Of a stretch of 64,000 nucleotides of DNA, positions 1 to 52,895 are shown in pieces. How positions within the stretch are numbered: position 1 is the first letter of the stretch; every line of letters starts with the position of its first letter. The notes under the pieces are model-generated. The model saw only the letters and a program-made list of their open reading frames with translations, searched no databases and had not been told where the DNA came from. A program made the translations under genes and the position numbers. Location of the stretch: positions 13,606 to 77,605 of the forward strand of contig JAFGIL010000047.1 of NCBI GenBank assembly GCA_016929635.1, in the 5' to 3' direction. This stretch comes from Endomicrobiales bacterium. GTDB lineage: Bacteria > Elusimicrobiota > Endomicrobiia > Endomicrobiales > JAFGIL01.

Positions 1-359
1 ACGGGAAATGAGTAATCGTCTTTCCTTGTTATCGTGAACCTTTCAGGAACCATGATGTCTTTCTTCATTACAAACTGGAAATAACGCAATGCCTTTTCAA
101 ATTCATGATTTCTGAACCAATGGGGGATGAAATCGTTAATATTTTTATTTATAAGATCGTTTAGTGAATAACCGGTAAGTCTTTCGAAGGATGGGTTTAT
201 GTAGTGGATCTTGTTGTTCATATCCCAGATTATAAATCCGTCTTCCATTGCAGTCAAAATAGGCATGCATTCTAGGTTAGAGATGTCTTTGGCATCATAT
301 AAACTATTCGGGATGTCGTTGTTTGGGTTATGGCTTTCTGGATTAATTTTGTTTTTCAT
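1..359 (-). CDS. PAS-domain sensor protein, 3'-truncated by the window edge (not in ORF track)
   Basis: Hand translation from ATG at 359 is open to base 1: MKNKINPESH...ILTAMEDGFIIWDMNNKIHYINPSFERLTGYSLNDLINKNI...ERFTITRKDDYSFP, a typical PAS/PAC pattern; starts 15 bp after the response regulator stop. Confidence 0.8.
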   Translation of the reverse strand, partial: MKNKINPESHNPNNDIPNSLYDAKDISNLECMPILTAMEDGFIIWDMNNKIHYINPSFERLTGYSLNDLINKNINDFIPHWFRNHEFEKALRYFQFVMKKDIMVPERFTITRKDDYSFP

Positions 360-374
360 TAGGTTGGGGGGTCT

Positions 375-968
375 TTATTCTTCTTTCTCTGAAAATATTT
401 CTTCCAGATTGTATTGTTTCAAGAATTTAAAAAAGTCGTTTTTCTTTATTCTTATTCGTCCTCCCGGTACCTCATATGAGTCAAGGAGCCCCTGTTCCAT
501 CCAGTTGTTTACCGTAGTCTTGGAGACATTGCAGGATTTGCAAATTTGGTATATTGTCAGGACACCTTCAATTTTTTCAGCCAGGAATCTTTCTTTTTCT
601 ATGCGGGATTCTATGCATTCCCTGATTTTTTTTCTTAATTCATTAATACTAAAAGGCTTTTTAATGTAATCGTATACACCTATGCGCAAAGACTCAATAG
701 CTGTGTCTACGCTAGGGTAAGCGGTTGTTATGATTACATCACAATCCGGCGTTTTAGATTTAATGTGCCTTAACACCTCCATACCGCTCATTCCCGGCAT
801 CTGCAAATCAAGCACTACAATGGAGAACTGCTCTTCCTTGAGGATTTCAACAGCTTCTTCACCGGTTCCGGCACACTTCACGTCATATCCGGTAATATTT
901 AACGCCCTTTCGCAGGCATGTGCTATAGTGGAATCGTCATCTACAATGAGAATTTTTGTTTTTTTCAT
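375..968 (-). CDS. Response regulator: N-terminal receiver domain plus C-terminal excisionase/MerR-like (HTH_17) DNA-binding domain
   Basis: ILIVDDD, phospho-acceptor VLDLQMPGMSG, IITTAY and KPF motifs; C-terminal LTIYQICKSCNVSKTTVNNWMEQGLLDSYEVPGGRIRI is HTH_17-like; GAGG RBS upstream. Confidence 0.85.
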   Translation of the reverse strand: MKKTKILIVDDDSTIAHACERALNITGYDVKCAGTGEEAVEILKEEQFSIVVLDLQMPGMSGMEVLRHIKSKTPDCDVIITTAYPSVDTAIESLRIGVYDYIKKPFSINELRKKIRECIESRIEKERFLAEKIEGVLTIYQICKSCNVSKTTVNNWMEQGLLDSYEVPGGRIRIKKNDFFKFLKQYNLEEIFSEKEE

Positions 969-1046
969 GATAAATACCTCTTGAATAAATAAGGAAATTT
1001 TGAAAAACTTGGTTATTTGGAGGGTTTATGCTTTTCCCCTTATATA

Positions 1047-1074
1047 ATTCTAACTTATTTTTTAATAATGTCAA
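1047..1074 (-). promoter_or_regulatory. sigma70-type promoter for the response regulator/PAS pair
   Basis: TTGACA-16 nt-TAGAAT on the minus strand. Confidence 0.6.
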
Positions 1075-1204
1075 TAGTTTTTATGTTCTTGATGATTTAT
1101 ATTATTCATATTATTTGATTTTTTAGCTGTTTTTGCTTTTAAAGGCTTTGAATTATCAATGTTTATTTAATTATTTTTGCACTCAGTATTATAATTATAT
1201 CAAG

Positions 1205-1234
1205 TTGAAATTTCCTATATTTATTTGATAGAAT
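1205..1234 (+). promoter_or_regulatory. sigma70-type promoter (extended -10) for the PAS-PAS/DUF6901/V4R operon
   Basis: TTGAAA-18 nt-TAGAAT with TG at the extended -10 position. Confidence 0.5.
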
Positions 1235-1292
1235 TTAATAACAATGTTAATTAAGGAAAAAATGTTAGTGATAGGCTAACATGGGGGGAGGC

Positions 1293-2204
1293 ATGAAAAA
1301 TGACAGGAAAAATTCGCTTGATAACAGGAATGACGATTTAAAGGAACAAATAAAGGAATTTGAAAGATTGCTTAGTGTGCAGAAGCAAACAGAATCTGCA
1401 CTGCTGGAATCAGAGAGAAAATACAGGATTATTTTTGATAATGTAACCGACGGTATCCTTGTTGCAGACAGGGATAACAAGTCTTTTTATCTTGCAAACA
1501 GAAGGATATGCGAAATGCTTGGATATAGCAGGGAAGAGCTCCATAAACTTAACGTCTGGGATATTCACCCGGAAAAAGACATATCCAGCATTCTTGAAAT
1601 ATTTGAAAGGCAATACAGAAAAGAATACACTTTGGCTGCAAGTATCCCCATGAAAAGAAAGGACGGAAGCATTTTTTATGCAGACGTCAATTCTGTGCCT
1701 ATCAATATAGAAGGAAAAGAATATTTGGTCGGGATCTTCAGGGATATCACGGAAAGAAAAGAGATGTTGGATATGCTTTTAAAGAAAGAAAGGAAGATAC
1801 GCGCAATAATTTCTTCCATGGATGATCTGGTTTTTATTTTAAGCAAGGAAGGCGTATTCATTAATTTTTACCAACCTCAAAATGTGGGAAAGTTATATCT
1901 CGAGCCTGAGAAGTTTATCGGAGAGTTATACAAAAAGGTTTTGCCGCAAGATATTTCTGATAAATTGGAATTAGCAATAAAAGTCATAACAAATAATAGC
2001 AATCTAGTGCAGGGGTTTGACTATTCGATGAAGATAAAAAACGAATTAAAATGGTTTGAAGCAAGGCTTTCTGCATTAAAAGACGAAAAAGACAATATTG
2101 ACGGATTTGTTGCAGTCATACGTGACATTACCGAGAGAAAAGAAATCGAAGATGACTTAAAAAGTGAAGTAGAAGAACTTAAAAAATTATTAAATGAGTT
2201 TTAA
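1293..2204 (+). CDS. Stand-alone tandem PAS/PAC protein with no output domain
   Basis: SERKYRIIFDNVTDGILVAD...ANRRICEMLGYSREEL...FRDITERK followed by a second PAS ending RDITERKEIED; start moved from 1281 to ATG 1293 because GGAG precedes it. Confidence 0.85.
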   Translation: MKNDRKNSLDNRNDDLKEQIKEFERLLSVQKQTESALLESERKYRIIFDNVTDGILVADRDNKSFYLANRRICEMLGYSREELHKLNVWDIHPEKDISSILEIFERQYRKEYTLAASIPMKRKDGSIFYADVNSVPINIEGKEYLVGIFRDITERKEMLDMLLKKERKIRAIISSMDDLVFILSKEGVFINFYQPQNVGKLYLEPEKFIGELYKKVLPQDISDKLELAIKVITNNSNLVQGFDYSMKIKNELKWFEARLSALKDEKDNIDGFVAVIRDITERKEIEDDLKSEVEELKKLLNEF

Positions 2205-2258
2205 TGGAAAATAAATTGTCTGGATTTGTAATTTTTTGGCTCTGGCAGGGGATATAAA

Positions 2259-2981
2259 ATGAATGAGACAATTAATTATTTAAAAAATGTGTATAACTTT
2301 AACTATAATTTCAGATTTAATGACGGCAAGGAATTAAAATTTAATATTCAGCTTGATAAAGTATCTCTTGGTATGATACCTAAAACACAGCTGGGATATC
2401 CCGAGTGGATAATTTTAGGACACAGGAAATGTCCCATATGCCCTTTTGACGAAAAAAATGTAAATTATTGCCCTATTGCAAAAAACCTTGTTGAAGTAAT
2501 TGATTCTTTTAAAGGAATGAATCCTGATGAGGATATTGAGCTTTTTATTAATACCGAGACGCGGAATTATTTTAAAAAAACAACTGTTAAAGAAGGCATG
2601 AGTTCCTTAATCGGAATCTATATGGTTACAGGCGGATGCCCTATTTTGGACAAACTTAGGCCGATGGTCAGGTTTCATCTTCCTTTTGCAGACCATGAGG
2701 AAACTAAATATCGTGCGATTACAATGTATCTAATGGCACAGTTTTTATTGTACAAACAAGGGAAGATACCTGATTGGGATTTAAAATATTTATTCAGTAT
2801 ATACAAGAATGTACGGATAGTTAACAGGAGTTTTCACGAAAGACTTGCAGAAAGCCCGCTTAAAAAAGCCAGTATTGAGGCTTTAATGAAGCTGGATTGT
2901 TTTGCAGGGCAGGTTTCGGATACGATAGTTGACAAAGATACAATGAGCAATATGAGCGAACTTTTCAATGCATACATGTAA
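2259..2981 (+). CDS. DUF6901-like Cys-containing protein
   Basis: CPICP..NYCPIA cluster and GGCPILDKLRPMVRFHLPFA..ET.YR motif, recalled as DUF6901; AGGGG RBS. Confidence 0.65.
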   Translation: MNETINYLKNVYNFNYNFRFNDGKELKFNIQLDKVSLGMIPKTQLGYPEWIILGHRKCPICPFDEKNVNYCPIAKNLVEVIDSFKGMNPDEDIELFINTETRNYFKKTTVKEGMSSLIGIYMVTGGCPILDKLRPMVRFHLPFADHEETKYRAITMYLMAQFLLYKQGKIPDWDLKYLFSIYKNVRIVNRSFHERLAESPLKKASIEALMKLDCFAGQVSDTIVDKDTMSNMSELFNAYM

Positions 2982-2994
2982 AAAGGGGATTTGA

Positions 2995-3564
2995 GTGGAT
3001 CTTGAAGGAATTGAAATAAGCGGATATGCGTTTTCAAACATTATCAAGATGTCCGGGATGTTTAATTCCGTACTAAAGGATATTTTTAAGAATCACCAAA
3101 TAGATAATTTTGAACCAAATTCCTGGTATCCGGTAAATTCTTTTATGGATGTTTTGGAAGAAATAAATGAAAAAGTTGGGGCAAATGCTGTGCATAAAAT
3201 AGGTTTGACGATTTCAAAAACAGCTGAAATTCCCATAGAAGTAAAAAGTATTTATGACTTCTTCTCAAATATTGACAAACTTTACCATCTTAATCACAGA
3301 AAAGACGGAAAGGCAATGTGCGACGCGCAAACAGAGCAAATGCAGGACGGTATAGGGCATTACATCTATGAGAAAATAGAATATAATAATTTAAAGATAA
3401 CATGCACAAATCCATACCCTTGTGATTTCAATTTAGGATTAATCGAAGGATTTGCGCAGAGGTTTGCCACCGAAGGAAAAAAAATATATATTAACCACTC
3501 CAGGCATCTTCCCTGCAAGAAAAACGGAGATGCATCTTGTATTTATTTTGTAACATGGGTCTAG
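2995..3564 (+). CDS. V4R/HNOB-like small-ligand-binding protein
   Basis: WYP motif, CTNPYPCDFNLGLIEGFA and terminal H....C...G...CIY.VTW resemble V4R; GTG start with AGGGGA RBS. Confidence 0.6.
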   Translation: MDLEGIEISGYAFSNIIKMSGMFNSVLKDIFKNHQIDNFEPNSWYPVNSFMDVLEEINEKVGANAVHKIGLTISKTAEIPIEVKSIYDFFSNIDKLYHLNHRKDGKAMCDAQTEQMQDGIGHYIYEKIEYNNLKITCTNPYPCDFNLGLIEGFAQRFATEGKKIYINHSRHLPCKKNGDASCIYFVTWV

Positions 3565-3594
3565 TATGGTTTTAATAAGTTAATCAAACAAACA

Positions 3595-3624
3595 AAAAAG
3601 CTGCAAAAAATACTGCAGCTTTTT
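3595..3624. terminator. Bidirectional intrinsic terminator
   Basis: AAAAAGCTGCA-8 nt loop-TGCAGCTTTTT with T-tracts on both strands, between convergent genes. Confidence 0.8.
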
Positions 3625-3678
3625 CTGTTTATCCCTTTGTTGGCACACTCCGGGAATATTATTTAGTTTTCATTTTTA

Positions 3679-3855
3679 CTAATATTTTAAAAGTAATTTG
3701 GAAGCTGTTTTTAAATCTATACCCCCATTTATAACAGCTAAGGCAAGCCATCTTAGAATCTTATTGTGATGCAGGAGTAATTGAGAAAGCTGGTTTTTAT
3801 CTCTAAGGTAGCATTTTTTCAATATTTCAATTTGAATGTTCATTAATTTTGCCAT
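3679..3855 (-). CDS. 58-aa hypothetical small protein (below ORF-track cutoff)
   Basis: MAKLMNIQIEILKKCYLRDKNQLSQLLLHHNKILRWLALAVINGGIDLKTASKLLLKY*; RBS AAAGAGGG upstream; sigma54-like promoter upstream and terminator downstream. Confidence 0.6.
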   Translation of the reverse strand: MAKLMNIQIEILKKCYLRDKNQLSQLLLHHNKILRWLALAVINGGIDLKTASKLLLKY

Positions 3856-3890
3856 TTTATTACCCTCTTTTTGCTCTCAATAATTGTTTC

Positions 3891-3907
3891 TGCAATTTAT
3901 GTGCCAG
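3891..3907 (-). promoter_or_regulatory. sigma54 (-24/-12) promoter
   Basis: CTGGCAC-ATAAA-TTGCA on the minus strand, matching TGGCAC-N5-TTGCW with exact spacing; predicted start site about 25 nt before the 58-aa ORF. Confidence 0.65.
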
Positions 3908-4016
3908 TTGTTTGGGGAAATAAATAATTTATTGAAAAATAAATCAAAAATGTTATTTCTGTTTTTGGTTTCATATGCGTTTTATTATCAAAAATGAGAA
4001 AAAGCTGGAAGATGGT

Positions 4017-4045
4017 TTGACAATCATACTAAAAAAAAGTATATT
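4017..4045 (+). promoter_or_regulatory. sigma70-type promoter for CDF/HAD
   Basis: TTGACA-17 nt-TATATT. Confidence 0.6.
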
Positions 4046-4063
4046 TAAAACCAGTACAATTTT

Positions 4064-36606: not shown

Positions 36607-37834
36607 TTTACAAAAACAAGACCCGGAAGTTTATAGTGCGATTCAAAAGGAATTAGAAAGACAGAGGATGACCCTTGAGTTAATAGCCTCCGAAAACCAT
36701 ACATCACAAGAGGTTTTGGAAGCCCAGGGCTCGGTTCTTACTAATAAATATGCCGAAGGATATCCGGGTAAGCGTTATTACGGCGGTTGCGAGTTTGTGG
36801 ATGTTGCTGAGACGCTTGCGATAGAGCGCACAAAAAAGCTTTTTGGCGCCGAGTACGTAAACGTACAGCCTCATTCCGGTACCCAGGCAAATATTGAAGC
36901 ATATCTTGCGGTTCTTAATGTAGGTGATACTATTATGGGGATGAATCTTGCGCACGGCGGGCATCTTTCCCACGGGCACCCCCTGAATTTTTCCGGTAAA
37001 TATTTTAAGATTGTTCCTTATACAGTGCGTCAGGATACGGAGTTGATAGATTACGATGAAGTTGAAAAGCTTGCAAAAGAAAATAAACCAAAGATGATAG
37101 TTACCGGAGCAAGCGCTTACTCAAGGATTTGGGACTGGGAAAGATTCAAAAAAATCGCAGACAGCGTTGGCGCGTTGCTTCTTGCCGACATAGCGCATTA
37201 TGCCGGGCTTATCGCGGCGGGCATTTATCCGTCCCCCGTTCCTTATGCGGACATAGTGACAACTACGACTCATAAAACACTCCGGGGCCCCAGGGCAGGA
37301 ATAATAATGGCAAAAGAAAAATATGCCGCACAGATTAACAAGTCTGTTTTTCCGGGGAACCAGGGCGGGCCTTTAATGCATGTAATTGCAGCAAAAGCCG
37401 TTGCATTGGGCGAAGCCTTAAAACCGGAGTTTAAGGAATATCAGAAACAGATTTTGAAAAACGCAAAGGTTTTTGCAGATACTTTAACCAAACAGGGGTT
37501 GCGGATTGTCTCAGGCGGGACGGACTGCCATATGTTCCTGGTTGATTTAAGGCCGCTTAAGATAACAGGCAAGGAAGCCGAAAAGACTCTAGAAAAGGTC
37601 TGCATTACCGTAAACAAAAATGCGATCCCTTATGATCCTGAAAAACCTATGATAGCTTCGGGAATAAGAATTGGGACACCTGCGATAACCACTCGAGGAA
37701 TGAAAGAAAATGAAGTAGAGCAAATCGCATCCTGGGTTGTTGAAGCAATTAAAAACAAAGACAACAAGAGTGTATTAGATAAAATAGGCAAGCAGGTAAA
37801 AGAGCTTTGCAAAAAATATCCTTTGTATGTTTAA
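36599..37834 (+). CDS. glyA: Serine hydroxymethyltransferase
   Basis: [47 protein letters not shown]. Confidence 0.98.
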
Positions 37835-51752: not shown

Positions 51753-52895
51753 ATGAATAAAAAGAAAATTGACATAAATCAGTATATCAGGCCCTGCTGC
51801 AGGAATTTTGAGCCGTATGTGGCAGGAAAACCCATTGAAACGATTAAAAGAGAGCTGGGATTAAAAAACGTTATAAAACTTGCTTCCAACGAGAATCCGA
51901 TAGGGCCGTCCTCTAAGGCGGTAAAAGCCATAAAAAATACCGCAAATAATGTATTTTTCTATCCCGATTCGAACTCCTGGAAGCTGCGAAAAGCGGTTTC
52001 CAAAAAATTCCGTATTGATATTTCCAGTATTTTATTGGGTTCGGGGTCAGACGAAATCATAGAACTTCTGGCTAAAGCTTTTTTTATGCCGCAGGATGAG
52101 ATAGTGGTGTCCGAACACGCTTTTATACGTTATAAAATGGCAGGCGATTTGCTGGATTCGACGGTTGTTACAATTCCGATGGAAAATTACACGCACAATT
52201 TGAAAGCTATGTTTAAAGCAATAAACGAAAAAACAAAAGCGGTTTTTATAGCTAATCCGAACAATCCTACAGGTACGTATAACGACACCGGAGAGATGGA
52301 AGAGTTTCTGAAGAACATTTCAGAGCTTTCATGTGAACGCAAACCCCTGGTTATTATGGATGAAGCTTATTATGAATATGCGAGAAGTTTTAAGGATTAT
52401 CCGGAGACTCTGAAATACATTGCGGATTATCCTAATTTGATAATCTTAAGGACCTTTTCAAAAATCTACGGGCTTGCAGGTTTGCGCGTTGGTTACGGTT
52501 TTACGTCCCGGGATATCGTAGATTACATTGAAAGGATAAGGCCCCCTTTTAATATAACTTCTATTTCACAGGAGGCAGCGGTAGCCAGCTTAAATGATTT
52601 ATCGCAGGTTAAAAAAAGCGTCCGGATGGTAAACGAACAGAGAGATTTTCTATATAACGAGTTAAAGAAAATAAATTTAATGTACATTCCGTCGGCAGCA
52701 AATTTTATTCTTATAGACGTTGCGCCTAAAGCCGGGCAGGACGTTTTCAGGGAAATGTTAAAAGAAGGGGTTATAGTTAGGGCTATGGACGAATATAACC
52801 TGCCTAATCATGTAAGGGTTAGCATCGGCTTGCCTAAACAGAACAGATTCTTTATAACCAAATTAAAAAAAGTGCTAAACAGGAAAAGAGGATAA
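51753..52895 (+). CDS. hisC: Histidinol-phosphate / aromatic aminotransferase
   Basis: [46 protein letters not shown]. Confidence 0.93.

Follow-up and report, generated by a model that had tools for sequence, protein, structure and literature searches.

The minus strand at positions 3907-3594 probably carries a monocistronic sigma54-dependent gene for a 58-residue protein, a reading that we give a probability of roughly 0.68. The region lies in the window, a 64,000-nucleotide stretch of contig C72 from a 77-contig assembly of a 2.23-Mb genome that is ~90% complete and has 39% GC. The promoter of the small gene is one of four in the genome that share an extended sequence pattern. A divergent sigma-54, a histidine kinase and an enhancer-binding protein are encoded next to one another on a different contig. 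The 58-residue protein itself has no detectable relatives, and the evidence for the gene comes from its layout, its promoter family and its coding-type statistics.

Layout of the small transcription unit

The minus strand holds the parts of a short transcription unit in order, and a divergent intergenic region lies upstream of it.

3907-3891, minus strand: sigma54-type -24/-12 promoter, cTGGCAC-ATAAA-TTGCA (direct reading)
3875..3890, minus strand: extended conserved segment after TTGCA, G-wwA-nn-ATT-R-w-TG-n-GA (four-promoter alignment)
3870-3863, minus strand: Shine-Dalgarno sequence AAAGAGGG, 20 nt beyond TTGCA (direct reading)
3855..3679, minus strand: 58-codon ORF (ORF translation)
3594..3625, both strands: bidirectional intrinsic terminator (terminator scan)
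3908..4063, both strands: AT-rich divergent intergenic region, the expected place of an upstream activator site
4017-4045, plus strand: sigma70-like promoter TTGACA-17-TATATT of the divergent cation-efflux gene (promoter scan)

The -24 and -12 elements have exact spacing. The -24 element, cTGGCAC, occupies 3907-3901 with its GG at 3905-3904. It is followed by the spacer ATAAA and by TTGCA at 3895-3891, in which the GC is at 3893-3892. The sequence at 3906-3891 matches TGGCAC-N5-TTGCW with no mismatches, and the promoter scan found no sigma70-like promoter upstream of the ORF on the minus strand. The extended segment covers the predicted transcription start. Position 3881, a conserved purine that falls where +1 is expected, serves here as the approximate start. 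A nominal start at about 3880-3881 would give a leader of about 25 nt. Downstream of this start, the GAGGG of AAAGAGGG is followed by a 7-nt spacer and then by the ATG at 3855. The ORF translates as MAKLMNIQIEILKKCYLRDKNQLSQLLLHHNKILRWLALAVINGGIDLKTASKLLLKY.

The stop codon is followed by a clean terminator within 54 nt. On the minus strand (3625..3594) the terminator has a 13-bp stem with four GC pairs and the T-run TTTTTTGTTTG, and its mirror on the plus strand (3595..3624) is an 11-bp version. A convergent gene for a 189-aa protein, which ends at 3564, has the same terminator. In the RNA fold of the unit the terminator is the sole stable element. The sequence-only reading of this DNA had described the same arrangement, and its four parts were recovered here: the CTGGCAC-N5-TTGCA promoter with exact spacing by direct reading, the leader of about 25 nt with its ribosome-binding site, the 58-codon ORF at 3855-3679 by translation of the minus strand, and the bidirectional terminator at 3595-3624 by a scan of both strands.

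A family of four promoters

A bare -24/-12 match is weak evidence by itself. When up to one mismatch is allowed, 1.7 matches are expected per window. The exact motif TGGCAC-N5-TTGCW is found three times in the 2.23-Mb genome compared with ~1.3 expected from base composition, and this is not significant. Support for the promoter comes from its genomic context and not from the -24/-12 match alone. The relaxed motif TGGCAY-N5-TTGCW has seven sites in the genome, and four of these are in intergenic DNA, which was defined as the ~9.6% of the genome outside ORFs of at least 90 aa (binomial p ~0.002). In all four intergenic cases a co-oriented gene begins with an ATG 37-43 nt past the -12 C, and this ATG is preceded by GGAGG, AGGAG or GAGGG. 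The 7-nt spacing of the 58-codon ORF is identical in the other three genes.

The similarity of the four promoters extends well past the -12 element. They align without gaps as TGGCAY-N5-TTGCAG-wwA-nn-ATT-R-w-TG-n-GA. The 17 positions after TTGCA played no part in the selection of the sites, and nine of them are invariant across the four promoters. Among 200,000 quartets of random intergenic 17-mers, none had more than six invariant columns (p below 5e-6). Taken together, the intergenic position, the orientation, the extended similarity, the Shine-Dalgarno sequence and the ORF length are far beyond chance. The sequence-only reading had judged the agreement of promoter, ribosome-binding site, ORF and terminator unlikely to be accidental. 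That judgment stands for context, Shine-Dalgarno sequence and ORF length combined, but not for the bare motif, which is not significant.

The invariant segment from TTGCAG to the final GA spans approximately -10 to +6 and lies outside the general sigma54 consensus. Possible roles are a lineage-specific requirement of the promoter or of initiation, the site of a second regulator, and a common 5'-UTR element. No k-mer or palindrome common to the four upstream regions was found as a candidate upstream activator site, which would be expected about 80-150 bp upstream, and with no more than four sequences such a site could have been missed.

Several other candidate sites were set aside. TGGAAT-N5-TTGCAG at C16:55906 is a weaker site in which the extended motif is absent, and it was left out of the family. 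The window has a second sigma54-like match, TGGCAGGCGATTTGCT at 52138-52153 on the plus strand, with one mismatch and without the extended motif; its presence fits the 1.7 matches that chance predicts for each window. Pattern searches for the promoter family in relatives were dominated by noise. Promoter candidates in two relatives (G008 and G016) were rejected, as both lie within apparent conserved coding sequence.

The four promoters and the genes that they precede are as follows.

Window 3875-3907, minus strand: promoter of the 58-codon gene
C7:2758: promoter of a gene for an M6-like metalloprotease with a signal peptide
C16:56863: promoter of a gene for an HD_5/HD-GYP protein
C31:111254: promoter of an 80-aa ORF, which is followed by genes for prepilin-type proteins with N_methyl motifs

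Each promoter stands behind a terminator of the preceding gene, so the four units are independent. Pilin operons are classic targets of sigma54 and PilR, as in the case of PilR and pilA. Predicted co-regulation with a pseudopilin operon, a protease and an HD-GYP protein would place the 58-codon gene in a "cell exterior / c-di-GMP" regulon of four promoters and not in the neighbouring PAS island. The small, cell-exterior-oriented set of targets is in line with the "bacterial exterior" theme in the title of Francke et al. 2011 (PMC3162934).

The 80-aa ORF (C31:110955-111197, minus strand) has one hydrophobic segment and matches no family. Two of the four sigma54 units start with a small ORF that could not be annotated, one of 58 aa and the other of 80 aa.

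A divergent sigma-54 and its putative activator

Contig C16 carries a minimal sigma54 module.

C16:34308-38465: genes for sigma-54, a hybrid histidine kinase and an enhancer-binding protein
C16:37431-38465: sigma-54 homologue of 344 aa, with a GTG start at 37431 preceded by GGAGG

The sigma-54 homologue is recognizable mainly by its DNA-binding domain. Pfam has a single Sigma54_DBD match in the genome (C16:38055-38462, 37 bits vs a cut-off of 22.8) and does not recognize the AID and CBD of the protein. The TIGR02395 model gives 41.5 bits vs a cut-off of 277. Four homologues are found elsewhere, with lengths of 324-366 aa and identities of 45-51%. A profile of the protein and these homologues matches Aquifex RpoN 5UI5 at residues 156-342 (E 5e-7), and the RpoN box, SRRLVCxCRNE, is invariant in five homologues. 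The AF2 model of the protein has an overall pLDDT of 58. In a Foldseek search of the PDB with this model, the top 18 matches are all sigma54 chains, with ~370-430 aligned columns.

Sigma54_DBD matches are found in 12 of the 31 genomes searched, which are the source genome and 11 of 30 order-level relatives (G001-G030). The frames in the relatives are mostly short (292-418 aa), and there is one canonical 465-aa gene, in G002. Some of the relatives have two copies of the domain, and f10, a family with small genomes, lacks it throughout. The similar length of the sigma-54 family (324-366 aa in the homologues and frames of 292-465 aa in the relatives) argues that it is functional.

The kinase gene adjoins the sigma-54 gene divergently and encodes a soluble hybrid histidine kinase of 547 aa (HisKA-HATPase-REC). 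Beside it is a gene for an enhancer-binding protein of 452 aa (REC-AAA+-HTH_8, 237-240 bits to PF00158), and in the PF00158 search this was the only strong enhancer-binding protein in the genome. Its sigma54-contact loop reads GAYTDA vs GAFTGA. The T is retained, the change from F to Y is conservative, and G is replaced by D at position 5. The GAFTGA requirement of enhancer-binding proteins is summarized in PMC3162934. The sequence-only reading had stated that no such protein is encoded in the window, and every PF00158 match is indeed on another contig. The rpoN gene and the AAA+ enhancer-binding protein on which its proposal depended are both present on C16, the former in a divergent form.

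Coding potential and homologues of the ORF

The intrinsic signals of the ORF (its length, Shine-Dalgarno sequence and hexamer score) favour the prediction that it is translated. A 5-mer Shine-Dalgarno sequence precedes 25% of the first ATGs of long ORFs vs 2.8% of all ATGs. In simulations matched to the composition of this 30%-GC sequence, the frame stays open for at least 57 codons past the ATG in 0.5-0.8% of cases (p 0.005-0.008). The in-frame hexamer score of 0.24 ranks at the 14th percentile among held-out coding windows, and among stop-free ORFs in wrong frames it is in the top 3%. The ORF has a GC content of ~29%, and both its GC content and its hexamer score are at the low end for genes. 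The unit shows no excess RNA structure (fold z -0.83) and has no match above noise to an Rfam family.

The 58-aa protein is a strict orphan by sequence. No homologue was found in a word-indexed search of ~5.8e9 clustered proteins, in a six-frame search of the genomes of 60 relatives, or in scans of JGI metagenomes and GTDB genomes. A full HMMER search of 1.84e9 representatives gave no credible homologue, and its lone match was rejected as a spurious repeat protein. The peptide has no match in Pfam, NCBIfam, PHROGs or PDB sequences, even at E up to 1-10. Searches of 3565-4063 against the genome with blastn and tblastx returned only the region itself, with no paralogue and no repeat or mobile element. 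The only other copy of the gene is in a Logan contig and is 100% identical; an identical contig is present in SRR13394437. The sequence-only reading had named conservation in no relative as a result that would count against the gene. No relative was found to have the ORF, and this finding is uninformative, as the collections contain no close relative and no syntenic locus for the ORF and its neighbours and the conservation test is therefore without power.

The protein is predicted to be small, helical and cytoplasmic. It has a mass of 6.7 kDa, a pI of 10.0, 24% leucine and no transmembrane segment, which fits its earlier description as basic and amphipathic. The AF2 model made from the single sequence has a moderate pLDDT of 72.7 and contains four helices (2-18, 20-29, 32-42 and 48-57). 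A Foldseek search of the PDB with this model gave no match. With low confidence, we suggest a small cytoplasmic adaptor with a regulatory role, whose binding partner may be another protein or nucleic acid.

Alternative explanations

Other explanations differ in which part of the unit they take to be real. The sigma54-like match could be non-working, either because it is due to chance or because the divergent sigma-54 and enhancer-binding protein are a non-canonical pair, and the ORF would then be silent, spurious or expressed from an unrecognized promoter. In favour of this, chance alone would place the bare motif ~1.3 times in the genome, the sigma-54 has no recognizable AID and CBD, the activator has GAYTDA in place of GAFTGA, and an upstream activator site was not found in the four upstream regions. 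We nevertheless consider this explanation unlikely. The promoter belongs to a four-member intergenic family with nine of 17 extra positions invariant (p below 5e-6), its geometry to the Shine-Dalgarno sequence and ATG is fixed in all four cases, and a pilin-type operon is behind one of the four. In addition, the sigma-54 model matches sigma54 chains over its whole length, and the family has been kept at a similar length. If the promoter and terminator are real, the ORF could still be incidental, and the product would be a sigma54-dependent non-coding small RNA of ~285 nt. Sigma54-dependent small RNAs are known elsewhere, for example Qrr1-5 of Vibrio and GlmY of Enterobacteria, and the unit resembles them in being short and monocistronic with an intrinsic terminator at its end. 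In favour of a small RNA, the peptide is an orphan without purifying-selection evidence, and the AT-rich composition of the region resembles that of intergenic DNA. Unlike Qrr1-5 and GlmY, however, the unit has a strong Shine-Dalgarno sequence and a 58-codon ORF of coding-type composition, and it has no significant RNA structure or Rfam match. The ideal 7-nt spacing is that of the three protein-coding members of the regulon, the length of the open frame is improbable by chance, and the hexamer score is high for a non-coding ORF, making a small RNA quite unlikely.

The ORF could also derive from a longer gene that is decaying, for instance as the N-terminus of a helix-turn-helix protein, and be behind the promoter by chance. 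The C-terminal "INGGIDLKTASKLL" may loosely resemble the first two helices of a helix-turn-helix domain, ending before the recognition helix, and the surrounding island has low GC and no synteny to relatives. A remnant is highly improbable, however, since no family is matched even at the most permissive E values, tblastx of 3565-4063 detected no paralogue in the genome, the continuation of the frame resembles no protein, and the stop is followed so closely by a clean terminator. A monocistronic sigma54-dependent gene for the 58-residue protein remains the preferred reading.

Proposed mechanism and comparison with known systems

Expression of the gene may proceed as follows. RNA polymerase with the short sigma-54 would form a closed complex on TGGCAC-N5-TTGCA. 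The hybrid histidine kinase would phosphorylate the adjacent NtrC-type enhancer-binding protein (REC-AAA+-HTH_8, on C16), and ATP hydrolysis by the phosphorylated protein would open the closed complex. Transcription would begin at the inferred start at ~3881, extend for ~285 nt and end at the shared terminator. The mRNA, with its 25-nt leader and well-spaced Shine-Dalgarno sequence, would be translated into a basic, leucine-rich, all-helical cytoplasmic protein of 58 residues. The gene would be co-regulated with the pseudopilin operon, the secreted M6-like protease and the HD-GYP protein.

The system shares several features with canonical sigma54 systems. Canonical sigma54 (-24/-12) promoters are under the control of NtrC-family activators, as in the case of glnAp2, nifH and the pilA genes of Pseudomonas, Myxococcus and Geobacter (PilS/PilR). 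The promoters described here have the same GG-N10-GC geometry (TGGCAC-N5-TTGCA), the likely regulators again comprise a kinase of the two-component type with a REC-AAA+-HTH_8 activator, and a pilin-type operon is among the targets as in PilS/PilR systems. In contrast to canonical systems, the sigma factor has just 344 aa and only its DNA-binding domain is detected by Pfam, the activator loop is GAYTDA, no upstream activator site is recognizable among the four upstream regions, and a target is an orphan 58-aa gene. The four promoters also have an invariant stretch, from -10 to about +6, that the general sigma54 consensus lacks. The best sequence match of the sigma profile is the ELH-HTH/RpoN-box half of Aquifex aeolicus sigma-54 (PDB 5UI5). 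The protein has a compact size similar to that of Aquifex aeolicus and other compact sigma-54 proteins, but unlike the Aquifex protein its N-terminal half is unrecognizable by sequence. Its RpoN box is SRRLVCxCRNE vs ARRTVAKYR.

Small proteins that act on signalling systems are a further point of comparison. MgrB, SafA and PmrD are induced by two-component systems and either exert feedback on signalling proteins or link them to one another. The 58-residue protein resembles them in its very small size, in having a promoter under what would be a single two-component system and in its position beside signalling genes, and the parallel in function is speculative. It has no similarity to them in sequence or structure. 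Unlike the membrane proteins MgrB and SafA, the 58-residue protein has no transmembrane segment. The protein might be a lineage-specific, perhaps de novo-born, connector that conveys the state of the minimal sigma54 circuit to the adjacent PAS/REC island, and we regard this role as very doubtful. If it were true, the circuit would be among the smallest complete sigma54 regulons and would have an atypical interface between sigma and activator. It would consist of one 344-aa sigma-54, one enhancer-binding protein with GAYTDA, a single hybrid kinase and the four promoters that share the invariant segment from -10 to +6.

A sigma54-dependent small gene is of a kind already known, and taken alone this one is one more unannotated small gene in a poorly sampled lineage. 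The extended promoter signature and the divergent minimal sigma54 system are a by-product of modest interest. The main value of the gene is as an anchor that helped to reveal a sigma54 regulon so small that it can be enumerated in full: it has four promoters, a single activator and a single kinase. This minimal system could serve to ask what is indispensable in the coupling of sigma54 and activator. The regulon also gives the orphan peptide an expression context, namely pili, a secreted protease and c-di-GMP turnover.

Neighbourhood of the small gene

The sequence-only reading had suggested that the small gene is possibly linked to adjacent PAS/V4R sensors. This link was not upheld, as it consists of adjacency only; the likely regulator is on C16 and the co-regulated genes are elsewhere in the genome. 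Besides the 189-aa protein, the neighbouring proteins include PAS, REC-HTH_17 and DUF6901 proteins. The V4R assignment of the 189-aa neighbour (2995-3564, plus strand) was not supported either, since Pfam and NCBIfam do not recognize the protein as V4R and no model in either collection matched it. Close relatives of this protein were found neither in GTDB genomes nor in JGI metagenomes.

The window at 1-4000, which contains the signalling island and the small gene, has a GC content of ~30-37% vs the genome mean of 39%. No syntenic counterpart of it was found in any relative searched, and homologues of the cation-efflux protein are only 27-31% identical. The region may be a lineage-specific acquisition or may be evolving fast.

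The 189-aa neighbour has a 36%-identical paralogue at C63:12352-12909, with apparent orthologues of that paralogue in four relatives. Matches of 36% identity in relatives were rejected as evidence of synteny, as they are apparently orthologues of this paralogue and their contexts differ. The paralogue and its orthologue in G001, which are those seen in full, have the C-terminal motif C-x-K-x-x-D-x-x-C-I-Y-x-V-x-W.
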